The notes under the pieces are model-generated. The model was not told the DNA's origin and did not search any database. It was given only the letters and a program-made list of their open reading frames with translations. A stretch of 64,000 bases of DNA from IMG/VR virus record IMGVR_UViG_3300048793_000046. One strand, written 5' to 3'. The position numbers were made by a program, and so were the translations under genes. This DNA comes from a virus. Lineage: Duplodnaviria; Heunggongvirae; Uroviricota; Caudoviricetes. Below are positions 10,657-54,052 of this stretch, in pieces; position 1 is the stretch's first letter, and each line of letters opens with the position of its first letter.

Positions 10657-10976
10657 TGAAACCTTTCAAGATATTCGGTATCGCGCCGACGCGCGAAAAG
10701 TTTCCGTGGGTGATCTTCTTTCTGCTTACGGTGCTGTTCCTGATCGGCGTCTCCCGGCACGCACATAGCGAAGAAGACATCTGGGCCTGCTACGCCTCGC
10801 AGCGCTATCAAGCCATGTCCTCGGGTTGGCCCGCGTGCAACGAGATGAGCTATCTGTGCTCGCGCGTTCAACAGTACCTCCAGTCTCATACTATTGAAGA
10901 GGGCCGCGCCGAAGGTGAAAAACTTCACATCCCGCAGTGGCTCCGTGCGAAAGCCGAAAGGTGCATCCCCAAATGA
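10653..10976 (+). CDS. small membrane protein (107 aa, one transmembrane segment)
   Basis: start chosen at MMKPFKIF; hydrophobic stretch [14 protein letters not shown]. Confidence 0.35.
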
Positions 10977-11980
10977 ACAGAGCGCTGATCACCGGGATCA
11001 CCGGACAGGACGGAAGCTACCTCGCGGAGCTTCTGCTCGACAAAGGATACGAGGTGCACGGTATCAAGCGCCGTGCTTCTTCGTTCAACACTTCGCGCAT
11101 CGACCACCTTCCGGCTCTAAAACTTCACTATGGGGATATGACTGATGGTTCTAATCTTGCTCGTATTATTCAAGAAGTTCGCCCGAGTGAGATATACAAT
11201 CTCGCTGCTCAGTCTCATGTGCAAGTCAGCTTCGAAACGCCCGAATACACCGCTAACGCGGATGGGCTCGGCGCTATGCGCCTTCTTGAAGCGGTGCGGG
11301 CAGTAGGTCCCGGCTACTGCACGCGCTTCTATCAGGCGTCCACGTCGGAACTATACGGCAACTCGGGCGGTTATCTTCGGAACGAAAACACCCCGTTCAT
11401 GCCGCGCAGCCCATACGCCGCTGCGAAGCTCTATGCGTTCTGGATTACGGTGAACTACCGCGAAGCCTATGGCGTCCACGCGAGCAACGGCATTCTGTTC
11501 AACCACGAGAGCCCGCGACGCGGCCCGACGTTCGTCACGCGCAAGATCACCAAGGCGGTTGCCGCGATCTCAACCGGCGCGCTGGACTGTCTTCGCCTCG
11601 GCAATCTCGACGCGATGCGCGACTGGGGCCACGCCCGGGACTATGTCGAAGCGATGTGGCTGACACTCCAGCAAGACGAGCCGGATGACTACGTGATCGC
11701 GACCGGCGAGGCGCATTCCGTCCGTGAGTTTGTCGAGCTTGCGTTCGCCGAAGTCGGTATGGACATCGGATGGACTGGCGAAGGCGTCAACGAGCTAGGT
11801 ATTGATCATGTCAGCGGCCAGCCCGTGATCCGCATCGATCCCCATTATTTTCGCCCAACCGAAGTTGACCTCTTGCGCGGCGACGCGACAAAGGCTATGA
11901 CGAAACTCGGCTGGCGGCCCAAGATCGGCTTCCGCGCGCTCGTCAAGGAAATGGTTGCGGCGGATTTGGAGGATTGTTGA
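10973..11980 (+). CDS. gmd: GDP-mannose 4,6-dehydratase
   Basis: [34 protein letters not shown] plus full-length similarity to the GMD short-chain dehydrogenase fold; start set at the internal ATG 10973. Confidence 0.85.
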
Positions 11981-12789
11981 TGCTTAACCCGGACACACGC
12001 GTCGCCGTCTGTTGCTATTCGGGTGACGGTCATCAAGTCGTCGAAGCGCTGGAGTTCTACTTGCACCATGAGTGCCCGCTCACAGTTCTCTCGCCCGCAG
12101 ACAGCAAGGTCGATGTCAACTATCCGGGCGTGACGAATGTCTTCGCCGGGAAGGCTGCCTACATCGGGCCGGACAGTTTTGACCGGGAAATGCTCCATCT
12201 CGCGGCGCTGTTGCAGTATCCCGAAAACCACTTCCTGATCCATGACGCCGACAGCATCATGCTCGATCCAAAAATCCCGGACTATCTGTACGCCGAGCCC
12301 GATATGGTTTGGTCGAACCAAGTCACCGACGCCATCCCTGAGCATCAGTCGTTCTTTCCCGAGGGCTGGCCGCACGTCGCTTTTCAGCCGCCGTACTTCC
12401 TGAGCCGCAGGACCATCGAAGCGATGCTCGCGGTCAAGGACGATCCCCGCGTCATAAGGGATCATCCGTGCATGCCGTTCATCGATTTCTACATGGTGCA
12501 GTTGACCATCGTCGCCGGGCTGCCGTGGCGGCGACTGATGGATTGCATTTCGTGTCCGATCTCGATAGACCTTCGCAAGGTCAACCCTCCCGAAGCTGAT
12601 CTCGTCACGTATGACATGGGAATGAAGATAGCGTCCAATGCTGTCCTCCGCGAGGGCACAAGCGTCCTTCACTCGGTCAAGAACTCGGTCGCTATCCGCA
12701 CGCTTGCGGGGTTGCGTCAACAATATCTCGCCAATCACCCGGATGCTCAGCCAAAGTTCTTCCCAGCCCCCACAATCGGAAGAGGCTAA
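11974..12789 (+). CDS. hypothetical protein, possible glycosyltransferase-like (IHDADSIML DxD-like motif)
   Basis: lies between gmd and fcl; DAD motif. Confidence 0.4.
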
Positions 12790-13661
12790 TGCTCGATCTG
12801 TCCCGTGTCACGCTTCTCTTCGTTGAAACCCGAGCCCACGCGATCACCAAGCGCGTGATCGATGACTGTCTGGCCAAGGCCGACTTCGGAGACGTGCTGA
12901 TCTATTCTGACAAGCCAGACCTAATCCCGATCTCCGGGGCGCGGCATATCCTCGTTCCAGACTTCCCGGACAAACGGGAGGCCGGACGCTTCTATTATTC
13001 AGAGGCGATGGCCAAGGTCGAAACCGATTTCGCTCTGATGCTGGAATGGGACGGCGGCATATATGACCCGTCGAAATGGAAGCCCGAGTTCTTTGACTAC
13101 GATTACATCGGAGCGCCGTGGCGGGTCCGCGACCAATACGACGTGGGTAACGGCGGCTTCACGTTGATGTCAAAGAAACTGGGGCACTTCATCTGCGAGA
13201 ATGCGGAGAAATATCCCGTCTGCACTGACATCGATATCTGCCGAGCCCAGCGCGAGAATTACGAGGCCGCCGGGTTCAAATGGCCTACGGCGTTGCTCGC
13301 ATCTTGCTTCTCGTGGGAGCTTGGGCTACGCAATCCAGAGCACTTCGGCTTTCACGGCGCGTTCACGTGGCCCGAAGTGCTGCCCAAGGAAGAGCTTGTT
13401 ATCCGCACCGGGCTACTGACCGAGACATCGTACCTGATGGCGAAGATGTATTACCTCGTTCGCGCGGCCCCTGAAATTTTGAAAGACTTGACACCAGAGC
13501 AGGCCGAACGCTATGTCTCGATTTACGGCGAACCGCAACCGCGCATCCCGGGCCACATCGCAGGCCGCTATATGTCTCCGCAACAGCGCGCGGCAATGAT
13601 GCTTGTTCAGGCGCAGCGACAGGGGCTCATCTCTCATCAACAAAAAGGGCTCAAAGCATGA
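12789..13661 (+). CDS. hypothetical protein in the glycan cassette (290 aa)
   Basis: translationally coupled with neighbouring genes. Confidence 0.4.
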   Translation: MLDLSRVTLLFVETRAHAITKRVIDDCLAKADFGDVLIYSDKPDLIPISGARHILVPDFPDKREAGRFYYSEAMAKVETDFALMLEWDGGIYDPSKWKPEFFDYDYIGAPWRVRDQYDVGNGGFTLMSKKLGHFICENAEKYPVCTDIDICRAQRENYEAAGFKWPTALLASCFSWELGLRNPEHFGFHGAFTWPEVLPKEELVIRTGLLTETSYLMAKMYYLVRAAPEILKDLTPEQAERYVSIYGEPQPRIPGHIAGRYMSPQQRAAMMLVQAQRQGLISHQQKGLKA

Positions 13662-14614
13662 AACGAAATAGCCCCATCCTCGTGACCGGCGCGAACGGGC
13701 TCGCCGGGTCTGCCGTTGTCGAGCATCTCCGCGCCAACGAGTTCACGTGCGTCATTCCAATCACCCGGGACGATGTTGATCAAGTTGATCTCCGTGATCA
13801 TAAGGCCGTGCACGATCTCTTCGAGCGCATCGGCGGCGACCGGGGTCCCTTCTACGTCTTCCACGCAGCAGCGACGGTCTACGGCCTCGGCGGCAACATG
13901 GCCAATCAGGGCAAGAGCATTCTCGACAACACGCTGATCAACACTGCCGTCATTGACGCTGCACAGCGTTCGGGCTGTCGCAAGATCACCGTCATGGGTA
14001 CGAACGCCGCATACCCGTGGCCGACACCGCTGCCCTTCAAAGAAGAGAACCTATACAACGGTCGCCCCGACGCGGGCGAGTTCGGCTACGGGCACGCGAA
14101 GCGTCACATGCTAGCGATGCTCGAAGCATATCAACAGAGCTACGGGCTGGAGTATTGCTACATCGTCAGCGGCAATCTCTATGGCCCGCGAGATACGTTC
14201 AACTCGAAGACCGGCCACGTACTACCGTCCCTGATCGCGAAATTCTCCGCTGCCAAAATTACCGGCGGCACTGTGGAAATCTGGGGCGACGGAACGGCTA
14301 GGCGTGACTTCCTGTACAGCAAAGACCTTGCTCGCGTCGTGCAGTTGCTCATGTCGGAAGACATCAAGCCCGGACCGATCAACATTGGTAGCGGAGAGGC
14401 GTATAGCATCCAACGTATCGTCGATTTGCTATGTACAATCTCCGGCGTCAGTGCGGACCGCGTCCGCTGGGATGCCTCTAAACCGAACGGGCGACTGGAC
14501 TGCCGCGCCGATCTCTCGCGTCTTGGGGCACTCGGCTTCTCGCCGAATTACTCAATTGAACAGGGCCTACAGGAGACGTGGGATTGGTTTAAGCGCGCTA
14601 CGGAGCGGGCATAA
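13658..14614 (+). CDS. fcl: GDP-L-fucose synthase (GDP-4-keto-6-deoxymannose 3,5-epimerase/4-reductase)
   Basis: ILVTGANGLAGSAVVEHL Rossmann N-terminus, YxxxK region, length of about 318 aa typical of Fcl/WcaG. Confidence 0.8.
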   Translation: MKRNSPILVTGANGLAGSAVVEHLRANEFTCVIPITRDDVDQVDLRDHKAVHDLFERIGGDRGPFYVFHAAATVYGLGGNMANQGKSILDNTLINTAVIDAAQRSGCRKITVMGTNAAYPWPTPLPFKEENLYNGRPDAGEFGYGHAKRHMLAMLEAYQQSYGLEYCYIVSGNLYGPRDTFNSKTGHVLPSLIAKFSAAKITGGTVEIWGDGTARRDFLYSKDLARVVQLLMSEDIKPGPINIGSGEAYSIQRIVDLLCTISGVSADRVRWDASKPNGRLDCRADLSRLGALGFSPNYSIEQGLQETWDWFKRATERA

Positions 14615-19669: not shown

Positions 19670-20078
19670 GATGCAGCTTGAAGAAACCGAATTTCGAAAA
19701 GTAGTCCGGCTTCTGTGTCATGAGCAGGATCATCTGCCCGTCGCGTTTTCCGATCTCGTCAATGCGCCACTCGACAAGCGCCTTGCCCGCGCCGCTACCC
19801 TGATAAGTCGGGTGCACAGCAATCCAGATCAGATTGAACGCGCCCTTCATCAGCATCGAAGGTCCGAACGCGGCGAAGCCGATTGGCGTCGGAGTGTAAT
19901 CTCGCGAGAGCGGATCACCAAGGTCCATAATCCCGAACGTCGGCGCGAAGTGCCCGCCTCGGAAATACTCGACCATCTGGAGATGACAGCGGTCGGCGGC
20001 TTCGATGCCCCAGTTCTCCAAGACAAGCCCGGAGCAGAACTCGATCTCTCTGTACTTCGGTTCGCGAATGAACATCAC
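19614..20078 (-). CDS. GNAT family N-acetyltransferase
   Basis: AVHPTYQGSGAGKALVEWRI is the acetyl-CoA binding motif A. Confidence 0.65.
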   Translation of the reverse strand: MMFIREPKYREIEFCSGLVLENWGIEAADRCHLQMVEYFRGGHFAPTFGIMDLGDPLSRDYTPTPIGFAAFGPSMLMKGAFNLIWIAVHPTYQGSGAGKALVEWRIDEIGKRDGQMILLMTQKPDYFSKFGFFKLHHVGNEWYLMLKLLKTVEM

Positions 20079-20611
20079 TTGTCCCTGTGACGATAGCGAG
20101 GAATACCCGCCGCCTCTTTGATCGCATCGGCGAACTTGTCGTTCGGACCGCGTGGGTCCTTCGGCTGTTGAAGCTGTTCGTGTCGCGTCGGTTCGAAATT
20201 GTTTCTGATCTCGTCGTCAATCCGCTCGGCAAGCAACAGCACCGAAAGCTTCGGGACGATCATGACTGTATTGGCGCTCTCAGTCATCATGAGATTGATT
20301 TTGTCCTCGCCTTCGAACAAACGGAAGTCTGTGCGATAGACGATGATGGCTTTGTCTGTGCCATAGCCGTAGCCCAGTTCCCAGCACGTGCCGCTGTCCG
20401 GGTCCGGCCCGTCGAGATTGGCAAGAACCAACTGAGCCCAGTCGATGCCTGTCTTGTCAGATTTGAAAATCAGATCAGGCCGGTCGGCGTGATGCTGGCG
20501 CTCTTGCGGAAGAAAAACTTCGTGACCATGAAGTCGAAGCGCCTCTGCGAGAGCGAGATTGAAATCGCACTCGGCTGTTGAGAACAGCGGGCCTGCCATA
20601 TAGATACGCAT
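20075..20611 (-). CDS. nucleoside 2-deoxyribosyltransferase-like protein
   Basis: MRIYMAGPLFSTAECDFNLALAEALRLHGHEVFLPQ matches the NDT/Rcl family N-terminus. Confidence 0.6.
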   Translation of the reverse strand: MRIYMAGPLFSTAECDFNLALAEALRLHGHEVFLPQERQHHADRPDLIFKSDKTGIDWAQLVLANLDGPDPDSGTCWELGYGYGTDKAIIVYRTDFRLFEGEDKINLMMTESANTVMIVPKLSVLLLAERIDDEIRNNFEPTRHEQLQQPKDPRGPNDKFADAIKEAAGIPRYRHRDK

Positions 20612-23562: not shown

Positions 23563-24003
23563 TCATGCGCTTCCGACGCTTGACGCGCGTATGTTTGCTT
23601 CGATGAGCACGTTGTCCAAATCTTTTTTGGATGCGAGCCGTGCGGCGGCGATCTCGCGGTTCTTGGCGATCACCTCTTCATCCCAGAGCGGCAGTCCGGC
23701 GGCCTCGCGCGCTTTGAGCGATGTCTCCAGATGTGCAAAAGCGCGCCACGCGAGTTTTCCCTCGTGAAGCGCGCCATCGTCAGGGTCGAACGTTCCGGTC
23801 TCGATCACGTGACGCACGATGCAGTCAGGATGATCCATCGACTTGCCTTCTGCCCAGTGAAGCGCCTCACCGGGGTTATGTTTTTCGTTGCCGAGTACGG
23901 AAATGCGCGCAACATACGCGGCAGCGTGCGGAAAGTATTTCAAGAAGCCGGTATAGATCGGGGCCTCTTTTCGAAGCTTGCTATCGGTCGGAAGCAAGGA
24001 CAT
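23563..24003 (-). CDS. dATP/dGTP pyrophosphohydrolase-domain-like protein (phage nucleotide pyrophosphatase family)
   Basis: KEAPIYTGFLKYFPHAAAYVARISVLGNEKHNPGEALHW..HPDCIVRH pattern as in phage DUF5664-type proteins. Confidence 0.4.
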   Translation of the reverse strand: MSLLPTDSKLRKEAPIYTGFLKYFPHAAAYVARISVLGNEKHNPGEALHWAEGKSMDHPDCIVRHVIETGTFDPDDGALHEGKLAWRAFAHLETSLKAREAAGLPLWDEEVIAKNREIAAARLASKKDLDNVLIEANIRASSVGSA

Positions 24004-24121: not shown

Positions 24122-24274
24122 AGGGACGCGGGTGCCTCCAATGTCGGCAGTGAGCGAAACGCATAATTGACCCTAGCTCAAAGATTAGTCGCGGAGCCCG
24201 GGGTCATACAAACGCTGCGGCTCCGCGCGACATTTGAGTAAGATACGCACATCCGGCGATCTCTGTCAAGATGG

Positions 24275-24347
24275 CATGAGTGGAAGGAGTTGAACCCTCG
24301 CTGGCACGGTTTTGGAGACCGGCGTGCTACCGTAACACTTCACTCAT
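24275..24347 (-). tRNA. tRNA-Trp (anticodon CCA), CCA not encoded
   Basis: 7-bp acceptor ATGAGTG/CACTCAT, T-arm GAGGG-TTCAACT-CCTTC, anticodon loop CTCCAAA. Confidence 0.55.
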
Positions 24348-24350
24348 AAA

Positions 24351-24427
24351 TGGTACTGCCTTAGCGATTTGAACGCCATCCCATCGGTTCACAGCCGACG
24401 TGCTCATTGCCATCGAGCATAGGCAGC
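24351..24427 (-). tRNA. tRNA-His (anticodon GTG), no G-1, A73, G1:U72; CCA encoded
   Basis: acceptor GCTGCCT/AGGCAGT, canonical T-arm TTCAAAT, anticodon loop CTGTGAA. Confidence 0.55.
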
Positions 24428-24428
24428 A

Positions 24429-24499
24429 TGGTCGCGCACCACGGTTACGATCCGGGCTGACAGCCGTATGAAAGCTATTTCCTCACCAGAGGGAGCGCG
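24429..24499 (-). tRNA. tRNA-like element, anticodon unresolved
   Basis: tgg followed by 6/7 acceptor complementarity and a cacgg-ttacgat-ccggg arm; fold not resolved by hand. Confidence 0.25.
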
Positions 24500-24504
24500 T
24501 TTAT

Positions 24505-24575
24505 TGGCAGCCGCTTTCGGTGTCGAACCGAACTCTTCAAGCTTCAAAGGCTCGTCGGGTCCCGGACCAGCGGCA
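24505..24575 (-). tRNA. tRNA-Gln (anticodon TTG), short D-region
   Basis: T-arm ttcgg-tgtcgaa-ccgaa, anticodon hairpin reading codon CAA, 1:72 unpaired. Confidence 0.4.
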
Positions 24576-24583
24576 AAAATAAT

Positions 24584-24658
24584 TGGCCCTGCTTCCGGGT
24601 GCTGCCCCCGGTTTTCCCGCTTGAAAGGCGGGGCTCTTAGCTGATGGAGGAAAGCAGG
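24584..24658 (-). tRNA. tRNA-Glu (anticodon TTC) with non-canonical T-loop GGCAGCA
   Basis: perfect acceptor cctgctt/aagcagg, perfect anticodon stem cccgc/gcggg, loop reads codon GAA; CCA encoded. Confidence 0.45.
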
Positions 24659-24659
24659 T

Positions 24660-24734
24660 TGGAGCGAGCACGGGGACTTGAACCCCGACCGCAACGCTTG
24701 GAAGGCGCGCGTGCTGCATTGACACTATGCTCGC
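24660..24734 (-). tRNA. tRNA-Gly (anticodon TCC), tentative
   Basis: perfect acceptor gcgagca/tgctcgc, canonical T-arm cgggg-acttgaa-ccccg, loop reads GGA. Confidence 0.45.
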
Positions 24735-24738
24735 AGAT

Positions 24739-24827
24739 TGGCGGAAAGACGGGGACTTGAACCCCGAAGCGGCTTACACCGCCGACAGTTTAGCAAACTG
24801 TTCGTTTGACCATTCACGCATCTTTCC
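24739..24827 (-). tRNA. tRNA-Ser (anticodon GCT), type II with long variable arm
   Basis: perfect acceptor, canonical T-arm, anticodon hairpin acagt-ttagcaa-actgt, variable-arm hairpin gcgg/ccgc; 86 nt. Confidence 0.6.
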
Positions 24828-24831
24828 AAGT

Positions 24832-24909
24832 TGGTCTTGCCGCGAGGACTTGAACCCCGACAACAGTCGTTTAGGAAACGACGGCTCTTTCCAGTTGAGC
24901 TACGGCAAG
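24832..24909 (-). tRNA. tRNA-Arg (anticodon CCT)
   Basis: perfect acceptor cttgccg/cggcaag, anticodon hairpin gtcgt-ttaggaa-acgac, D-stem gctc/gagc. Confidence 0.6.
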
Positions 24910-24914
24910 GAGAT

Positions 24915-24996
24915 TGGTGATCCGGGCAGGATTTGAACCCGCGTTTGCAGCGCCGCTACGGATAATCGCTTAGAAGACGAAACCGGCTACCGGACC
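24915..24996 (-). tRNA. tRNA-like element (79 nt), anticodon unresolved (possibly TCT)
   Basis: CCA, acceptor ggtccgg/ccggatc with G:U, T-arm gcagg-atttgaa-cccgc; internal fold unclear. Confidence 0.3.
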
Positions 24997-25000
24997 CTAA

Positions 25001-25075
25001 TGGAGACGTGCGGGCGAGTTGAACGCCCCTAGCATCGCTTTGCAGGCGAGCACATAGCCGCTCTGACAGCACGTC
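25001..25075 (-). tRNA. tRNA-Cys (anticodon GCA)
   Basis: perfect acceptor and T-arm; loop reads codon TGC; D-arm AGAGCGGCTATGT resembles the unusual E. coli tRNA-Cys D-arm. Confidence 0.6.
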
Positions 25076-25079
25076 GTAT

Positions 25080-25153
25080 TGGCAGCCCCACTCAGTGTTG
25101 ATCTGAGGTCTCGCGGTTCAGAGCCGCGCACTCTCCCGTTGAGCTATGGGGCA
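25080..25153 (-). tRNA. tRNA-Gln (anticodon CTG)
   Basis: perfect T-stem ctcag/ctgag, perfect anticodon stem cgcgg/ccgcg, loop reads CAG; 1:72 unpaired as in the other Gln. Confidence 0.5.
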
Positions 25154-25155
25154 AT

Positions 25156-25232
25156 TGGTCTGCGTAGCAGGCTTCGATCCTGCGGCCTCTCGCTTCCGGG
25201 GCGAGCACTCTTCCAGACTGAGCTATACGCAG
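25156..25232 (-). tRNA. tRNA-Pro (anticodon CGG), apparent C33
   Basis: perfect acceptor ctgcgta/tacgcag, perfect T-arm, anticodon stem ctcgc/gcgag with loop CCCGGAA. Confidence 0.45.
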
Positions 25233-25233
25233 A

Positions 25234-25315
25234 TGGTACTCGCGGCGTGGGTCGAACACGCATTTGCAACTCCATTACGGATACGACGTTCGTAGCGTCG
25301 CTCGGTTACGCGAGT
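25234..25315 (-). tRNA. tRNA-like element with perfect Arg(ACG) anticodon hairpin but aberrant D-arm/variable-region lengths
   Basis: 7/7 acceptor actcgcg/cgcgagt, canonical T-arm gcgtg-ggtcgaa-cacgc, hairpin CGACG-CTACGAA-CGTCG; spacing between elements is non-standard. Confidence 0.35.
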
Positions 25316-25329
25316 GTGAAGTGTTTGTT

Positions 25330-25403
25330 TGGGGCTGCTAGCGGGTTCTGACCCCGCGCCGCCGGTTTGAGGGACCAGCATCCTCCCATTAGACGATAGC
25401 AGC
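25330..25403 (-). tRNA. tRNA-Glu (anticodon CTC), tentative; apparent C33 and T-loop GTCAGAA
   Basis: perfect acceptor gctgcta/tagcagc and T-stem gcggg/cccgc; anticodon loop CCCTCAA. Confidence 0.35.
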
Positions 25404-25407
25404 GTTT

Positions 25408-25482
25408 TGGCTCCCGCAGCACGTTTCGAACGTGCCTTCTCCGATTAACAGTCGGACGCCCTCACCGAGATGGCTCTACGGG
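25408..25482 (-). tRNA. tRNA-Asn (anticodon GTT)
   Basis: canonical T-arm gcacg-tttcgaa-cgtgc, perfect anticodon hairpin tccga-ttaacag-tcgga. Confidence 0.6.
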
Positions 25483-25490
25483 AATAAAAA

Positions 25491-25565
25491 TGGTGGACCT
25501 TCACGGTTACGATCCGTGTCTCCCGCATTGCAAGTGCGGTGTGCTCCCATTATCACTAAAGGCCC
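25491..25565 (-). tRNA. tRNA-Ala (anticodon TGC) with G3:U70; T-loop ATCGTAA
   Basis: perfect anticodon hairpin ccgca-ttgcaag-tgcgg; acceptor GGGCCTT/AAGGTCC gives the G3:U70 identity pair; CCA encoded. Confidence 0.6.
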
Positions 25566-25566
25566 G

Positions 25567-25641
25567 TGGTGCCTAGTCACGGTTTCGATCCGCGCTCTCC
25601 TGCTCTTCACGCAGGCGCTTTCCCAGATTAGCTTACTAGGC
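25567..25641 (-). tRNA. tRNA-Phe (anticodon GAA), tentative
   Basis: perfect acceptor gcctagt/actaggc, perfect anticodon stem cctgc/gcagg, loop reads TTC. Confidence 0.5.
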
Positions 25642-25644
25642 AAT

Positions 25645-25718
25645 TGGTGCGGACAGGGAGAGTTGAACTCCCGCTACTTCGTTGGCAACGAAGCCGACTT
25701 CCGTAATCATTTGTCCGC
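25645..25718 (-). tRNA. tRNA-Gly (anticodon GCC)
   Basis: perfect acceptor, T-arm gggag-agttgaa-ctccc, anticodon hairpin cttcg-ttggcaa-cgaag. Confidence 0.6.
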
Positions 25719-25724
25719 ATTTTT

Positions 25725-25810
25725 TGGTGCTCCATCGAGGTAACGATCCTCGCCAGCCCGAAGGCATCTGTTTTACAGACAGCGCGGCGTCCTTAGCCAC
25801 CTACTGGAGC
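25725..25810 (-). tRNA. tRNA-Tyr (anticodon GTA), type II
   Basis: perfect T-arm cgagg-taacgat-cctcg, long variable arm gcc..ggc, loop tttacag reads TAC; 5' acceptor boundary uncertain. Confidence 0.4.
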
Positions 25811-25814
25811 GTAT

Positions 25815-25891
25815 TGGTTGCGCAGGTTGGAATTGAACCAACAATAAATCAGCTTATGAGGCTGACTAGCCTACCAAGGCTTGTCCGCGCG
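25815..25891 (-). tRNA. tRNA-Met (anticodon CAT; initiator, elongator or Ile2 not distinguishable)
   Basis: perfect T-arm gttgg-aattgaa-ccaac, perfect anticodon hairpin tcagc-ttatgag-gctga; possible 1:72 mismatch. Confidence 0.45.
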
Positions 25892-25901
25892 ATAGAAGAA
25901 T

Positions 25902-25990
25902 TGGCGGAGGGCGGGTAGATTTGAACTCCATGCCTTTCGGCACCCTCGGTTTTCAGGACCGCGACAGAACCCCGTCTGCTTCTGCCCTCC
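25902..25990 (-). tRNA. type II tRNA-like, possibly tRNA-Ser (anticodon TGA); imperfect T-stem
   Basis: 7/7 acceptor ggagggc/gccctcc, variable-arm hairpin, anticodon hairpin cggt-tttcagg-accg; 86 nt. Confidence 0.35.
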
Positions 25991-25994
25991 ATTT

Positions 25995-26070
25995 GGTGAT
26001 CTCCCGGGGAGTTGAACCCCGATCTCCGAGTTTCGGAAACTCGCGCTCTGTCCAGTTGAGCTAAGAGACC
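25995..26070 (-). tRNA. tRNA-Arg (anticodon CCG)
   Basis: canonical T-arm cgggg-agttgaa-ccccg, perfect anticodon hairpin cgagt-ttcggaa-actcg, D-stem gctc/gagc with GG in loop; CCA encoded. Confidence 0.6.
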
Positions 26071-26074
26071 TTTT

Positions 26075-26551
26075 TTATTTCATGCCTTTGCGTCTGACAT
26101 TGCCGCGCCGATCATAAGCTCCAGTGGGCCAAAAACAATCCATCGTGACGCGAGCGATCAAACCATCATCTGTGAACACCGCCGGTCCCTTGAGAGTTTT
26201 GCCGTCTACCGCCTGTTCGAATGCAAGATAGCTTCCGCCGCGATCAGGAGACGCTGGATCAACGAAAAACAAATCCAAGTCCGTAGGCTCATCCAACGGG
26301 ACCGGCACTCCAGCGGCCTTGCACGCCTCAAAGAGAGCGGTTCGGTATCGCTGTATCACCGCGAGATGCATCCGACGATGCGGCGCGTGATGGATCGATA
26401 GCCGCAACAGGGCTGGGAATTGATCGGGAAAGTATTTGACGATGATCTTCATTTCAAAGTCCTTTGGTGGGCCGCTCCGGTTACGATCCGGATCAAGGAA
26501 CAGCCGTCCGCTGCTAAAGAGCTTATAAGGCTCTCCCGTGTCCAACACCAC
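26075..26551 (-). CDS. hypothetical protein (158 aa) embedded between the two tRNA blocks; weak RusA-like resemblance (DLD..DDG)
   Basis: ORF flanked by tRNAs on the same strand. Confidence 0.35.
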   Translation of the reverse strand: MVLDTGEPYKLFSSGRLFLDPDRNRSGPPKDFEMKIIVKYFPDQFPALLRLSIHHAPHRRMHLAVIQRYRTALFEACKAAGVPVPLDEPTDLDLFFVDPASPDRGGSYLAFEQAVDGKTLKGPAVFTDDGLIARVTMDCFWPTGAYDRRGNVRRKGMK

Positions 26552-26561
26552 AGCCCATTTC

Positions 26562-26635
26562 TGGTCTCCGCACGGAGTTCCGCCTTCCGGCCTCCGCCTT
26601 CCAAGGGCGGCGCTCTTCTCACGAGCTTTGCAGAG
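26562..26635 (-). tRNA. tRNA-Pro (anticodon TGG) with GG-containing T-loop GGCGGAA and a GG-less D-loop
   Basis: perfect anticodon hairpin ccgcc-ttccaag-ggcgg, D-stem gctc/gagc, acceptor with one G:U. Confidence 0.45.
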
Positions 26636-26640
26636 CTAAC

Positions 26641-26714
26641 TGGCGCGGCTAGGGAGTATCGATCTCCCGTCATTCGGTTGACAACCGAGCGCTCTACCTT
26701 TGAACTATAGCCGC
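26641..26714 (-). tRNA. tRNA-Asp (anticodon GTC)
   Basis: perfect acceptor gcggcta/tagccgc, perfect T-arm gggag-tatcgat-ctccc, loop ttgacaa reads GAC. Confidence 0.55.
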
Positions 26715-26721
26715 AAAAATT

Positions 26722-26796
26722 TGGTGGGCTCCCACGGTAACGATCCGTGTTCTCATGGGTTAAGAGGCCAGCGCACTACCTTTGTGCTAGGAGCCC
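26722..26796 (-). tRNA. tRNA-Lys (anticodon CTT), weak anticodon stem, T-loop ATCGTTA
   Basis: perfect acceptor GGGCTCC, D-stem GCAC/GTGC, anticodon loop CTCTTAA with only 3 central base pairs. Confidence 0.4.
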
Positions 26797-26797
26797 T

Positions 26798-26872
26798 TGG
26801 TGGACCGCCCCGGTACTGCCCCGGGTTCTTACGGGTTAAAAGGCCGACGTGCTACTTTCCTACTCGCGGTCC
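26798..26872 (-). tRNA. tRNA-Lys (anticodon TTT), weak anticodon stem, T-loop GGCAGTA
   Basis: perfect acceptor ggaccgc/gcggtcc, perfect T-stem cccgg/ccggg, loop CTTTTAA. Confidence 0.4.
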
Positions 26873-26874
26873 GA

Positions 26875-27060
26875 TCAGGACTGCGACGGTTTCAGTGTAG
26901 CCTCAACGCACACCACGATCTGTCCCGTTGCAGGGATGTGATGCACGATCTGGCGCTTCATCTTGAAACGTGTATCGCCCACAGCGCAGAGCGGGCACTT
27001 TTCTGTATCTTGCATGCTCGTCTCCTGTTGTGTTGGTTGACCCTGCTGGTTTCGATCCAA
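26875..27060 (-). CDS. small Cys-containing protein (61 aa, CPLC motif)
   Basis: short ORF inside the tRNA block. Confidence 0.25.
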   Translation of the reverse strand: MDRNQQGQPTQQETSMQDTEKCPLCAVGDTRFKMKRQIVHHIPATGQIVVCVEATLKPSQS

Positions 27061-27108
27061 CTTTCCACGGTTATCGACCGCGTGCCTTAGCCACTAGACG
27101 AAGGGTCA
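27034..27108 (-). tRNA. tRNA-Ile (anticodon GAT), tentative; apparent C33
   Basis: perfect acceptor tgaccct/agggtca, T-arm gctgg-tttcgat-ccaac, anticodon loop TCGATAA. Confidence 0.4.
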
Positions 27109-27112
27109 GTGA

Positions 27113-27187
27113 TGGTGCGTCTTGCAGGGGATGATCCTGCCGCCTCTCGCATGTCGAGCGAGCGCTCTTCCGCTGAGCTAAAGACGC
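27113..27187 (-). tRNA. tRNA-Val (anticodon GAC), tentative; apparent C33
   Basis: perfect acceptor gcgtctt/aagacgc, perfect T-stem gcagg/cctgc, anticodon stem ctcgc/gcgag with loop TCGACAT. Confidence 0.4.
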
Positions 27188-27192
27188 GGAAT

Positions 27193-27274
27193 TGGTCGGA
27201 GGGGTATTTCTACACCCGGAGCGCGTACTGGTCCCCCGCCCTTTCGGGCGAGCCAACGCCATCTCTACCCTCCG
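27193..27274 (-). tRNA. tRNA-like element (79 nt), unresolved internal fold
   Basis: CCA plus perfect 7-bp acceptor cggaggg/ccctccg; G-rich interior with CCC-GAAA-GGG hairpin. Confidence 0.3.
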
Positions 27275-27305
27275 CCGGGCCTGCCTCGTTGCGCTTGCGC
27301 GCGAT

Positions 27306-27380
27306 TGGTACTCCCTCCCGGGATCGAGCCGGGTCATGTCGGTGTGTAGGACCGATGCCTTCCCATCTGGCGCAGGGAGC
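27306..27380 (-). tRNA. tRNA-Val (anticodon TAC), tentative; apparent C33
   Basis: perfect T-arm cccgg-gatcgag-ccggg, perfect anticodon stem tcggt/accga with loop CCTACAC. Confidence 0.4.
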
Positions 27381-27381
27381 G

Positions 27382-27457
27382 TGGTGTGAATGTCGGGAGT
27401 TGAACCCGAAAGGCACGGGGTTTAAGCCCTGCCGCGTTTCCGCTTCGCCACACTCAC
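27382..27457 (-). tRNA. tRNA-like element with TTA/TAA triplet in a 6-7 nt anticodon loop (class I length)
   Basis: CCA, acceptor gtgagtg/cattcac, canonical T-arm tcggg-agttgaa-cccga; stem cgggg/ccctg closes a tttaag loop. Confidence 0.3.
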
Positions 27458-27458
27458 T

Positions 27459-27534
27459 TGGTGTCGGTCGCGGGAGTTGAACCCGCAAGAGTTGGCTTTT
27501 GAGACCACCCATGTTTCCACTTCACCAGACCGAC
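27459..27534 (-). tRNA. tRNA-like element, anticodon unresolved (CAA-like loop CTCAAAA)
   Basis: perfect acceptor gtcggtc/gaccgac and canonical T-arm gcggg-agttgaa-cccgc. Confidence 0.35.
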
Positions 27535-27539
27535 AAAAT

Positions 27540-27622
27540 TGGTACCCCCGGGGAGACTTGAACTCCCAATCCTTTCGGCGCTAGTTTCTAAGACTAGTGC
27601 GTATGCATTCCGCCACGGGGGC
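27540..27622 (-). tRNA. tRNA-Leu (anticodon TAG), type II
   Basis: canonical T-arm gggag-acttgaa-ctccc, perfect anticodon hairpin ctagt-ttctaag-actag, long variable region; 80 nt. Confidence 0.55.
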
Positions 27623-27623
27623 G

Positions 27624-27697
27624 TGGTGCTCTCTGATGGTTACAATCCATCGTCGGCCCCTTACCAAAGGGCAATTCTGTCATTGAACTAAGAGAGC
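27624..27697 (-). tRNA. tRNA-Thr (anticodon GGT); T-loop ATTGTAA lacks C56
   Basis: perfect acceptor gctctct/agagagc, perfect T-stem gatgg/ccatc, loop ttaccaa reads ACC. Confidence 0.5.
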
Positions 27698-27701
27698 GAA
27701 T

Positions 27702-27776
27702 TGGAGCCGATTGCAGGAATTAAACCCGCGACATCCGCGCTACAAGGGCGGCGTTCTATCACTGAACTAAATCGGC
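27702..27776 (-). tRNA. tRNA-Thr (anticodon TGT)
   Basis: perfect acceptor gccgatt/aatcggc, D-stem gttc/gaac, loop ctacaag reads ACA. Confidence 0.5.
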
Positions 27777-27778
27777 AA

Positions 27779-27852
27779 TGGTGCTGGTTAGGTAAATCGA
27801 ATACCTGTTTGCGCCTTACGAGGGGGCTGTTCTGCCACTGAACTAAACCAGC
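27779..27852 (-). tRNA. tRNA-Thr (anticodon CGT)
   Basis: perfect acceptor gctggtt/aaccagc, canonical T-arm aggta-aatcgaa-tacct, loop ttacgag reads ACG. Confidence 0.55.
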
Positions 27853-49978: not shown

Positions 49979-50444
49979 CATCATAGTCGGTCAGCGTAAG
50001 ATCGCGAGGCTGACACATCGGACAAGGCTTTGGCCACGTGAAATTCGTGGATAGGCGGCGAGTGGATGACCAGTCAGTGACGGTTCTGAATGATACGACG
50101 GACTGCGGTCAGACCCGGGGGCAGTACCCGGCACCTCCACCATGGTCGGCGCGAAGTGACATGGATGTCATTCGCCATAGAGCGAGCTACCCAGCGTGGA
50201 GCACGCGCCGACTTTGACGGGGGTGAAACAGGATCGATGGACGCTCGGAAAGTCGTAAAGTGAACTCGGTATTGTTCCGCCGTTATCGGGCTACAAACTA
50301 AATGTGAACGACAACGTTCCCATGAACGAAATGCGCCTCGCGGCGTAAGTAGTTCGGGGCCGGTCACCTAGCAACAGAACGACCAAACGAAACGCCCGGG
50401 CAGTGATGCCCGGGCGTTTTTGTTTTTCAGTTGGCCGCCGAGAT

Positions 50445-53335: not shown

Positions 53336-54052
53336 TCAGCCATTGTTCCAGTGGCTCCATACTTGCCACGCTTGCACGATGCAATCGTACACGGGCTCAT
53401 GCGGCACGCCCGTCCCGGGCGGATCGACATCGCCGATAGGTGCGATGCGCGTCGCTGGCGTCTCGCGCACAAACGTCCGCATGTCGCGCGGCGCTTGATA
53501 GTGCCAAAGATCGGGCTGCCCGTCCTCGCCTAATTGTCGATTGAGTTCGACGAGATTAGACAGATCGAATTGATTACCATTCGCCCAGACGCGAGATTTT
53601 CCGTCACAGAACATCTGAACCATACGACATACGGAAGCAAGGTTCGTGCGTCCGGTGTCGGCGTCCATCCAATGAGCTTGAGCTTCGCGCTTTTGGCCTT
53701 TCCACCACGCTTGCGTGCCAACACTGACTTCGCGACCGAGCAAGAGTTGCTGTTCGATATTGGGCAGGATGAGTGACCGCGCGCCGACCTTCAATAGCCC
53801 AACGCCTGCCTGCTCTTGCGCGCCAGTCGGATCGAACTCAATCATGCCGATGGAAAGAATGAGCGCATTGTTGGGGCTCAGCGACATGGTTTCGATATCG
53901 ATCATCACATGATCGAACTCGGGCGCTTTGATATCAGAAAGGGATGTCGTCGCCATTATCAATCCTCGGGCGCTGATGGCTCTCGGCGCGGCGTCGCACG
54001 ATAGCGATGCTGGACGAAAAGCCGGGGACCATATCATTGTAGGTCGCGTCAA
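53336..54052 (-). CDS. DEDD-family 3'-5' exonuclease (DnaQ-like)
   Basis: Exo I HVMIDIETMSL, later acidic motifs consistent with the DEDD fold. Confidence 0.5.
   Translation of the reverse strand: MTRPTMIWSPAFRPASLSCDAAPRAISARGLIMATTSLSDIKAPEFDHVMIDIETMSLSPNNALILSIGMIEFDPTGAQEQAGVGLLKVGARSLILPNIEQQLLLGREVSVGTQAWWKGQKREAQAHWMDADTGRTNLASVCRMVQMFCDGKSRVWANGNQFDLSNLVELNRQLGEDGQPDLWHYQAPRDMRTFVRETPATRIAPIGDVDPPGTGVPHEPVYDCIVQAWQVWSHWNNG

Follow-up and report, generated by a model that had tools for sequence, protein, structure and literature searches.

The DNA analyzed here is a 64,000-nucleotide stretch of IMG/VR virus record IMGVR_UViG_3300048793_000046 (Caudoviricetes), referred to throughout as the window. 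At 24272-27852 on its minus strand lies an array of ~38 tRNA genes, all with an encoded CCA, interrupted by open reading frames (ORFs) of 125 and 47 amino acids. Textbooks treat G18, G19, U54, pseudouridine-55, C56, A58, and U33 as "universal" nucleotides of tRNA, and pseudouridine-55 has been termed the most universally conserved tRNA modification (PMC7912444). Judged from sequence, the array genes are in all likelihood genuine tRNAs that probably serve translation and that come from a mobile pool of long tRNA arrays, with the tertiary pairs of the elbow, formed between D-loop and T-loop, apparently rebuilt in about half of the genes. The evidence includes intact stems, covariation at positions 18:55, 19:56, and 54:58, matched changes in syntenic orthologues, and the occurrence of the same design in long arrays elsewhere, both bacterial and phage-borne.

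With ~38 tRNA genes in 3.6 kilobases (kb), together supplying all 20 amino acids, the array falls within the definition of a tRNA array unit, at least 20 tRNA genes at two or more per kb, as given by Tran et al. 2016 (PMC4758250).

Gene Calls, Stems, and Covariation at the Elbow

Default ARAGORN called 27 genes in the array, relaxed ARAGORN called six more, and the Rfam model RF00005 recovered ~22 at its gathering score (29 bits). An exhaustive cloverleaf finder of our own, anchored on the encoded CCA, a 7-base-pair (bp) acceptor stem, and a T arm of 5 bp with a 7-nucleotide (nt) loop, returned 35 units, including three missed by both programs. These are tRNA-Glu(UUC), tRNA-Pro(UGG), and tRNA-Lys(UUU), the G55 genes, each the sole array gene for its anticodon. 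All three lack an RF00005 match even at E ≤ 10 and also escape relaxed ARAGORN, a comparison that had been proposed in a first-pass annotation of this DNA. Their finder scores were 56, 51, and 40, and 120 kb (both strands) of the window outside the array gave no hits scoring 36 or higher. Other variant genes are visible to the Rfam model: 29 bits or more were assigned to all A54 genes but tRNA-Tyr(GUA), the CAU-anticodon tRNA, and the UAU-anticodon tRNA, and also to both U56 genes (40.8-59.5 bits).

The array genes pass a cloverleaf test of a 7-bp acceptor stem, 5-bp T and anticodon stems, 7-nt loops, a D arm, and CCA, with exceptions for tRNA-Pro(UGG) (T stem 4/5 paired), both tRNA-Lys genes (3-bp anticodon stems), and two genes with miniature D arms. 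All odd genes encode CCA, and their acceptor stems are paired at 7/7 and their T stems at 5/5 positions, save for the T stem of tRNA-Pro(UGG) and both stems of the CAU tRNA (acceptor 6/7, T stem 4/5). The first-pass annotation had called the acceptor, T, and anticodon stems of several members perfect; this holds for the acceptor stems and most T stems of the genes it quoted, and fails for the T stems of tRNA-Pro(UGG) and tRNA-Ser(UGA) and for the anticodon stems of the Lys genes. Every gene and loop it quoted is present where it was placed, on the minus strand and with an encoded CCA.

One or more of the near-invariants (G18-G19, U54-U55-C56, A58, pyrimidine-60, and U33) is violated in 17 of the 30 best-scoring genes, leaving only 13 that combine a canonical elbow with U33. 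Non-canonical loops thus occur in more genes than had been listed, with A54 in 12 genes, G54:G58 in four, and C54 in one. A54:U58 is found in the Ala, Lys-CUU, Tyr, Val-GAC, CAU, and UAU tRNAs and in Thr-GGU, and A54:A58 in five genes (Ile-GAU, Asp, Phe, Pro-CGG, and Gln-CUG). The odd genes are as follows.

24429-24499, minus strand: CAU-anticodon tRNA; miniature D arm, T-loop AUCGUAA (A54:U58), anticodon loop UUCAUAC
24584-24658, minus strand: tRNA-Glu(UUC); D-loop CAUCAGCUAA (A18-G19), T-loop GGCAGCA (G54, G55, C56, A57, G58), G73, 4-nt variable region
25080-25153, minus strand: tRNA-Gln(CUG); T-loop AUCAACA (A54:A58)
25156-25232, minus strand: tRNA-Pro(CGG); T-loop AUCGAAG (A54:A58), anticodon loop CCCGGAA (C33)
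25330-25403, minus strand: tRNA-Glu(CUC); T-loop GUCAGAA (G54:G58, U55), normal GG D-loop, anticodon loop CCCUCAA (C33)
25491-25565, minus strand: tRNA-Ala(UGC); T-loop AUCGUAA (A54:U58), G3:U70 kept
25567-25641, minus strand: tRNA-Phe(GAA); T-loop AUCGAAA (A54:A58, A60)
25725-25810, minus strand: tRNA-Tyr(GUA); T-loop AUCGUUA (A54:U58)
25902-25990, minus strand: tRNA-Ser(UGA); anticodon loop CCUGAAA (C33), imperfect T stem, the weakest member
26465-26556, minus strand: class-II-shaped UAU-anticodon tRNA; long variable arm, small D arm, A73, T-loop AUCGUAA (A54:U58), anticodon loop CUUAUAA
26562-26635, minus strand: tRNA-Pro(UGG); A8, D-loop GUGAGAA (A18-G19), T-loop GGCGGAA, A53.C61 mismatch, C1:G72, A73
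26641-26714, minus strand: tRNA-Asp(GUC); T-loop AUCGAUA (A54:A58)
26722-26796, minus strand: tRNA-Lys(CUU); T-loop AUCGUUA (A54:U58), 3-bp anticodon stem
26798-26872, minus strand: tRNA-Lys(UUU); D-loop GGAAAGUAG (A18-G19), T-loop GGCAGUA, 3-bp anticodon stem
27034-27108, minus strand: tRNA-Ile(GAU); T-loop AUCGAAA (A54:A58, A60), anticodon loop UCGAUAA (C33)
27113-27187, minus strand: tRNA-Val(GAC); T-loop AUCAUCC (A54:U58), anticodon loop UCGACAU (C33)
27306-27380, minus strand: tRNA-Val(UAC); T-loop CUCGAUC (C54), anticodon loop CCUACAC (C33)
27624-27697, minus strand: tRNA-Thr(GGU); D-loop AAUGACA (A19), T-loop AUUGUAA (A54, U56, U58)
27702-27776, minus strand: tRNA-Thr(UGU); D-loop AGUGAUA (G18-A19), T-loop UUUAAUU (U56), 19:56 = A:U

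A folding artefact, in which stems drawn by hand had fallen into the wrong register, is refuted by the agreement of ARAGORN structures, the exhaustive finder, and a column-slide test. ARAGORN structures give identical T-loops for every A54 and U56 gene. In a gap-free alignment of 48 sequences (A1), 95.7% of stem cells are paired, compared with 55.8% after shuffling, with many compensatory changes, and sliding the 3′ partners by one to three columns lowers pairing to 36-44%. Inspection by eye also rejected 6-bp T stems as alternatives for GGCAGCA and AUCGUAA, because the bases do not pair. Automated folding therefore upheld the registers, and canonical T-loops and U33 were not recovered in the genes quoted.

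For the elbow, 799 distinct array tRNAs were collected, and counts at 18:55 were restricted to the 204 in which a D stem of 4 bp closes a D-loop of 7 nt, so that positions 18 and 19 are unambiguous. In this set 18:55 is G:U in 101 tRNAs and A:G in 95, with A:U found once and G:G never (Fisher's exact p = 1e-56). The window and its syntenic relatives alone give G:U 58, A:G 13, and neither A:U nor G:G (p = 2e-14), and U18:U55 was seen four times in the wider data set. The "GG" that had been read in the T-loops of tRNA-Glu(UUC), tRNA-Pro(UGG), and tRNA-Lys(UUU) is G54-G55. Their D-loops, described as "GG-less", do lack GG; they read AG instead and so retain G19, with G19:C56 intact and only the 18:55 pair altered.

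The 19:56 pair varies as well. Among the same 204 tRNAs it is G:C in 194, A:U in five, U:A in two, C:G in one, and mismatched in two; on A1, 97.9% of cells are paired at these columns, with seven double changes. Both Thr genes reported to lack C56, tRNA-Thr(GGU) and tRNA-Thr(UGU), do lack it, and because A19 accompanies U56 in each, their 19:56 pair is A:U.

At 54:58 the states are U:A 118, A:U 27, A:A 26, G:G 33, C:A 3, and G:A 1, with mutual information of 0.87 bit, whereas none of 2000 shuffles exceeded 0.08. The apparent exchange of A54 and U58 first noticed in tRNA-Ala (AUCGUAA) and tRNA-Lys(CUU) (AUCGUUA) is thus real and covaries. Position 60 follows position 54 (mutual information 0.76 bit): U54 goes with U60 in 101 of 118 cases, A54 and G54 go with A60, and G54:G58 is accompanied by A60 in 33 of 33 cases. 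Taken together, covariation at the three pairs supports the early suggestion of a distinct tertiary interaction between D-loop and T-loop and, along with matched changes in syntenic orthologues, its view that the pattern is a family feature and not decay.

A structural interpretation of these rules can be proposed. A18:G55 would stand in for G18:U55 (pseudouridine-55); G19:C56 is exchanged for A:U in the window and for U:A or C:G in relatives; and U54:A58 gives way to A:U, A:A, or G:G, upon which position 60 changes from U to A. Because the replacement nucleotides still fit each other, the normal L-shape and its flat outer face would be kept, and the 19:56 pair would go on providing the outer stacking surface used by RNase P, the ribosome, and other partners. 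The sequence G55-C56-R57(-A58), often GCAA or GCGA, may take over from the U55 turn by folding into a GNRA-like turn. Array tRNAs of this kind would be processed, charged, and used on the ribosome. Replacement of U54, U55, A58, and G18 makes m5U54, pseudouridine-55, m1A58, and Gm18 impossible at the substituted positions, and the loss of these modifications there is certain.

Distribution in Phage and Bacterial Arrays

Syntenic arrays were found by two routes. The 125-amino-acid ORF (window 26078-26452, minus strand), which has no Pfam or PHROG family, recurs at 79-88% identity inside four other arrays, on IMG/VR contigs L041-L044, and a pattern built on the conserved CAU tRNA led to four further contigs, L045-L047 and L049. 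All eight bear the same kinds of non-canonical loops. Within single gene lineages the loops switch between states, given below as D-loop/T-loop.

tRNA-Thr(GGU): AAUGGCA/AUCGUAA (L047, L041) versus AAUGACA/AUUGUAA (window); only 19 and 56 differ
tRNA-Lys(CUU): UAAGGUG/AUCGUUA (L042) versus UAAGCUG/AUGGUUA (L046); D and T stems identical
tRNA-Val(GAC): AGCGGNA/AUCAUCC (window, L042, L046) versus AUCAGCR/GGCAGCA (L047, L043); T stem and variable loop identical
tRNA-Glu(UUC): ..CAGCUA/GGCAGCA (window, L041, L043, L044), the paired D-loop of this state being AUCAGCUA, versus AAAGGCAUA/GUCAGUA (L042, L047)
tRNA-Lys(UUU): GGAAAGUAG/GGCAGUA (window, L047, L042) versus GGAUGGGAA/AUCGAAA (L046, GG D-loop)

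The 19:56 switch was seen in at least nine isoacceptor lineages, and one intermediate survives as A19.C56 in tRNA-Thr(CGU) of L042. In tRNA-Val(UAC) of L043 and L046, A18:G55 is joined with U19:A56 (UAAAUUG/GGAGGUA), while the window's version of this gene shares its loops with L047 and L042. The tRNA-Thr(UGU) orthologue in L047 has the D-loop AGUGGCA. The tRNA-Pro(UGG) gene of L047 is identical to that of the window in D arm, anticodon arm, T arm, and acceptor stem, and that of L041 has the D-loop/T-loop combination GUGCUAGAA/GGCAGAA. Orthologues of the CAU tRNA occur in L042-L047 and L049 with compensatory changes in acceptor and T stems. Such matched switches and compensatory stem changes are, at the level of sequence, the signature of RNAs selected for structure and not of pseudogenes.

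The T-loop states are not spread evenly over amino acids. Across arrays L041-L120, U54:A58 is kept in tRNA-Arg (76/76) and tRNA-Leu (55/56) and is rare in tRNA-Glu (13/76), tRNA-Ile (9/36), and tRNA-Asp (8/25), in phage and bacterial arrays alike. G55 is overrepresented among the U34 tRNAs of the syntenic arrays (15/23 versus 47/185, p = 4e-4).

C33 had been claimed for at least five genes, and six were found: tRNA-Pro(CGG), tRNA-Glu(CUC), tRNA-Ile(GAU), tRNA-Val(GAC), tRNA-Val(UAC), and tRNA-Ser(UGA). The general form proposed for their anticodon loops, C/U-C-NNN-A-A, is right in its C33 and too narrow for the Val genes, whose loops are UC-GAC-AU and CC-UAC-AC. Within the syntenic arrays C33 occurs in 22 of 208 tRNAs, mainly tRNA-Glu(UUC) (7/9), tRNA-Ile(GAU) (4/6), tRNA-Val(GAC) (3/6), and tRNA-Val(UAC); over all arrays it reaches 20/36 in tRNA-Ile(GAU) and 13/19 in tRNA-Leu(GAG). 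Closer phage relatives, with T-loops that otherwise keep to the canonical form, also alternate between C33 and U33 in tRNA-Pro(CGG), tRNA-Ile(GAU), and tRNA-Ala(UGC), and C33 recurs in tRNA-Pro(CGG) of L014, L015, L016, and L031. Given these counts from syntenic arrays, all arrays, and closer relatives, C33 is, on sequence comparison, a recurrent trait bound to particular isoacceptors.

Spread beyond phages was followed with a pattern specific for the tRNA-Glu(UUC) gene, CAGCTA-N12-TTCA-N14-GGGCAGCAC. It matched at least 36 contigs in a species-representative genome collection, where ~4 would be expected by chance (19 fixed bases), and at least 36 IMG/VR contigs. Most genome matches belong to Verrucomicrobiota (Akkermansiaceae, Luteolibacter, Opitutaceae, and a complete Nibricoccus chromosome), and further ones to metagenome-assembled genomes (MAGs) of uncultured Alphaproteobacteria. 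At 10 of 12 genome loci scanned the Glu gene belongs to or adjoins a series of tRNA genes, and ordinary cellular genes flank the array at both of the two genome loci checked. Across 36 genome loci, 259 of 319 tRNAs carry G55, with T-loops such as UGCAAGU and GGCAGCA and nearly always AG in the D-loop. In the Nibricoccus array (L051), directly followed by an HNH endonuclease, Rfam detects 11 of 18 tRNAs and misses seven. The L-array (long tRNA array) of the Anabaena plasmid pCC7120delta occupies its last 6 kb beside an HNH gene, with no tRNAs in the first 50 kb; it is mostly canonical, with one A18:G55 tRNA and with short-variable-arm Leu tRNAs as in the phage arrays. With eight syntenic contigs, the odd Glu gene in arrays of two phyla, and short-arm Leu tRNAs shared with Anabaena, the sequences indicate horizontal spread and a gene content common to other long arrays.

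GenBank phages gave little in comparison: no close relative of the window was found among them, no homologue of the odd tRNA-Glu(UUC) appeared in searches of these phages, and searches across the array matched only scattered canonical tRNAs. The DUF932 and exonuclease genes that flank the array led to relatives that either carry no tRNA array or have a small, canonical one.

Other Features of the Array and the Phage

Nucleotides used for aminoacyl-tRNA identity are preserved in the array, and they agree with established bacterial identity rules. These include C1:G72 and A73 in tRNA-Pro, G73 and a 4-nt variable loop in tRNA-Glu(UUC), G3:U70 in tRNA-Ala, an unpaired U1 with G73 in tRNA-Gln, U73 in tRNA-Cys, and G73 in tRNA-Asp, tRNA-Asn, tRNA-Trp, and tRNA-Ser. 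One CAU tRNA carries a C1.A72 mismatch, as initiator tRNAs typically do. The conserved array ORF is immediately preceded by the class-II-shaped UAU tRNA both in the window and in L041 (5889-5983), and if this tRNA were charged by leucyl- or seryl-tRNA synthetase, the AUA codon would be recoded. In both tRNA-Lys genes (26722-26872), C27.U43 and C31.C39 mismatches leave an anticodon stem of three pairs and an effective 9-nt loop, and this opened stem is kept in L047 and L042.

Several further peculiarities were observed, all on the minus strand. A long variable arm is the defining trait of bacterial tRNA-Leu, and tRNA-Leu(CAA) and tRNA-Leu(UAA) (27459-27534 and 27382-27457) have none, a design also present in relatives and, as noted, in the Anabaena plasmid. 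tRNA-Gln(UUG) (24505-24575) has a miniature D arm like that of the CAU tRNA (stem of 3-4 bp, loop of 3-5 nt), and miniaturized D arms also occur in the Ala and Trp tRNAs of some relatives. tRNA-Gly(UCC) (24660-24734) and tRNA-Leu(UAG) (27540-27622) combine a D-loop of the form ..AUGCA.. (U18-G19) with canonical T-loops. Two aberrant tRNA-like units, at 25234-25315 and 24915-25002, have good acceptor and T arms and CCA with irregular D and anticodon regions; relaxed ARAGORN reports them as Arg-UCG and Arg-UCU, and similar units lie at the matching array position in L042 and L044. Between tRNA-Val(UAC) and tRNA-Val(GAC), an 82-nt element ending in ACCA (27193-27274) consists of an acceptor-like helix and a hairpin of 6 bp with a tetraloop, with no cloverleaf, and is absent beside the Val genes of L047 and L041. 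The 47-amino-acid ORF inside the array (26875-27016) carries a CxxC motif.

The GC content of the window is ~58%, and Pfam and PHROG scans of its proteins identified a family A DNA polymerase, a primase-polymerase, an SNF2-type helicase, and two exonucleases, among others. At 50025-50389 on the plus strand lies a two-piece (permuted) alpha-type transfer-messenger RNA (tmRNA), which scores 132.7 bits with Rfam RF01849 and 108 bits with RF04321 and on which ARAGORN is silent. There is a tRNA-His that has A73 and lacks G-1, a combination of the alphaproteobacterial type. Because of this tRNA and the alpha-type tmRNA, the host of the phage is probably an alphaproteobacterium.

Beside the array are genes for a protein with a dATP/dGTP diphosphohydrolase N-terminal domain (23563-24003, minus strand) and a nucleoside 2-deoxyribosyltransferase (20075-20611, minus strand), a pair that hints at modified DNA bases in the phage. 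Elsewhere the window encodes an Rv2179c-like 3′-5′ exoribonuclease (53336-54052, minus strand) and the sugar-nucleotide enzymes GDP-mannose 4,6-dehydratase and an epimerase (10937-14614, plus strand).

Alternative Explanations and Known Systems

Two explanations would deny the odd genes a place in translation. Decay would make them tRNA pseudogenes in the course of losing conserved loops, which would fit the failure of ARAGORN and Rfam on the three G55 genes, the mismatches of a few members (A53.C61 in tRNA-Pro(UGG), the T stem of tRNA-Ser(UGA)), and the pseudogenes that make up three of the 26 genes of the Anabaena array (PMC8421152). It is largely refuted, and its probability is now very small, since the stems are intact with compensatory changes, substitutions in the loops come in matching pairs, different phages and phyla retain the designs, and the odd G55 genes are the sole carriers of their anticodons. 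Decoys or mimics, raised in the first-pass annotation, would be tRNA-shaped RNAs acting outside translation to soak up or trigger host factors; they have a precedent in viral tRNAs reported to neutralize defense systems, and the window also holds the ACCA-ended RNA without a cloverleaf and the other aberrant tRNA-like units. This idea is nonetheless quite unlikely because the odd genes are sole carriers of anticodons, complete the codon coverage, and keep, for each amino acid, the anticodon, discriminator base, and acceptor identity pairs that bacteria use, features unnecessary for a decoy.

As to why probably functional tRNAs should look like this, compensated drift and adaptive escape have to be set against each other. 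Under drift, supernumerary and fast-evolving tRNAs would tolerate a slightly harmful hit that is later compensated, and the alternative pairs would bring no benefit. Intermediates do exist (A19.C56 in tRNA-Thr(CGU) of L042, G54:A58 once, U18:U55 four times), single steps link all states (U:A to A:A to A:U; A:A to G:A to G:G), orthologues in different phages occupy different states, and relatives with small arrays are fully canonical. Drift sits less well with the strongly non-random distribution over amino acids in phage and bacterial arrays, with the dominance of G55 over whole arrays, and with the Glu, Ile, Asp, and Val-UAC tRNAs, which rarely or never revert to U54:A58 although one mutation would suffice; we regard it as a doubtful but serious contender. 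Escape would mean that rebuilt elbows and C33 were selected for resistance to host tRNA-cleaving nucleases or toxins, sustaining translation when host tRNAs are destroyed. Anticodon-loop changes that are expected to protect phage tRNAs from anticodon nucleases have been described (PMC10264068), and both C33 and the opened Lys stems, the latter conserved in both Lys tRNAs, would fit them. The supply of all 20 amino acids is in keeping with such a role, as is the enrichment of G55 in U34 tRNAs, the window's own G55 genes being Glu-UUC, Lys-UUU, and Pro-UGG. tRNA-Lys(UUU) and tRNA-Glu(UUC) are classic anticodon-nuclease targets. The isoacceptor-specific recurrence of C33 in distant arrays, the near fixation of G55 in bacterial arrays, and the non-random distribution of T-loops over amino acids also count for selection. 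On the other hand, about half of the array retains a canonical elbow, the same designs occur in bacterial chromosomal arrays, where escape by a phage is not an obvious benefit, and the known anticodon nucleases recognize the anticodon loop and not the elbow. Escape thus stands at nearly the same odds as drift, each of them less likely than not.

The favored account, of genuine and probably translational tRNAs from a mobile array pool, has points against it as well. Some members are imperfect (A53.C61 in tRNA-Pro(UGG), the 3-bp anticodon stems of both Lys tRNAs, the poor T stem of tRNA-Ser(UGA)), and Pfam and PHROG scans of ~40 window proteins revealed no recognizable tRNA ligase, CCA-adding enzyme, tRNA-modification or repair enzyme, or tRNA nuclease. 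The contrast between Arg or Leu and Glu could reflect synthetase constraints and not a benefit, and part of the association could be inherited, for example if array tRNA-Glu is one old lineage; either would favor drift or ancestry. The closest phage relatives by the exonuclease gene have canonical T-loops only, and variant elbows are therefore not required by this phage lineage as such. We know of no phage-defense nuclease that is directed at the elbow.

If the array tRNAs are what they appear to be, their persistence may be explained by independence from, or poor recognition by, host nucleases, toxins, or TruB, TrmA, and TrmH enzymes that read the canonical T-loop, D-loop, or U33; this is a possibility that we would put well short of even and about level with compensated drift. 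A more tentative suggestion is that mobile arrays across phyla share a second elbow architecture (a GNRA-like turn with A18:G55, a free choice of 19:56 pair, and coupled purines at 54 and 60), which would be independent of modification and could act as a back-up or escape set during attack directed at tRNAs. Such a pool would be competent in translation without m5U54, pseudouridine-55, and Gm18, the universal T-loop modifications, and host factors that recognize the canonical elbow would consequently overlook it or fail to act on it.

In any case, hundreds of tRNAs that lack universal nucleotides and still follow rules constitute a natural experiment on what the elbow requires. They are candidate scaffolds for orthogonal or modification-independent tRNAs, and they may help to explain why complete sets of tRNA genes are found in phages and mobile arrays. 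They also expose an annotation blind spot, in that standard tools overlook those members that diverge most (three in the window and 7/18 in Nibricoccus).

Phage tRNA clusters, bacterial L-arrays, and eukaryotic A54:A58 T-loops are already known, and each resembles the window's array in part. Closest are the bacterial L-arrays (Santamaria-Gomez et al. 2021, PMC8421152; PMC4758250), which likewise comprise dozens of packed, co-oriented, supernumerary tRNA genes and spread horizontally; tRNA-Glu(UUC) in its identical odd form is found in arrays of Verrucomicrobiota and Alphaproteobacteria MAGs, and the short-arm Leu tRNAs in that of Anabaena. Of the 26 tRNAs of the Anabaena array, 23 are charged in vivo, and those tested occur in polysomes (PMC8421152). 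The window's array differs in residing in a phage genome and in having no homing endonuclease recognized beside it; Pfam and PHROG scans found no HNH domain in ORFs within or beside the array, a homing endonuclease being a frequent and not an obligatory L-array feature. In a term search of the L-array paper (PMC8421152), none of "T-loop", "D-loop", "G18", and "U33" appeared.

The phage clusters described by van den Berg et al. 2023 (PMC10264068) share large tRNA sets and anticodon-loop deviations, represented here by C33 in six genes and the opened Lys stems, and their tRNAs with anticodon-loop mutations are predicted to resist anticodon nucleases. That work compared phage and host loops at cleavage sites, whereas deviation was measured here from the universal consensus only, and the main deviation in the window, at the D-loop/T-loop elbow, is not mentioned there. 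For covarying A18:G55, permuted 19:56, and A54:U58 or G54:G58 elbows, no description in bacterial or phage tRNAs was found in the searchable literature, which is incomplete.

Outside bacteria, A54:A58 with a purine at position 60 makes a viable T-loop in eukaryotic initiator tRNA and in metazoan tRNA-Ala(AGC) (PMC7566577, PMC7912444). The loop AUCGAAA is exactly that of the window's tRNA-Ile(GAU) and tRNA-Phe(GAA), and the coupling of purine-54 with purine-60 is shared, to which the phage set adds A54:U58, G54:G58, A18:G55, and swapped 19:56. Canonical GG and TTC signatures are also absent from tRNA-Pyl and type II mitochondrial tRNAs (PMC7609411), of which the latter lose the contact between D-loop and T-loop and the former uses an unusual one. 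The array tRNAs, unlike both, are otherwise standard cloverleaves, and they appear to keep the contact by means of covarying substitutes.

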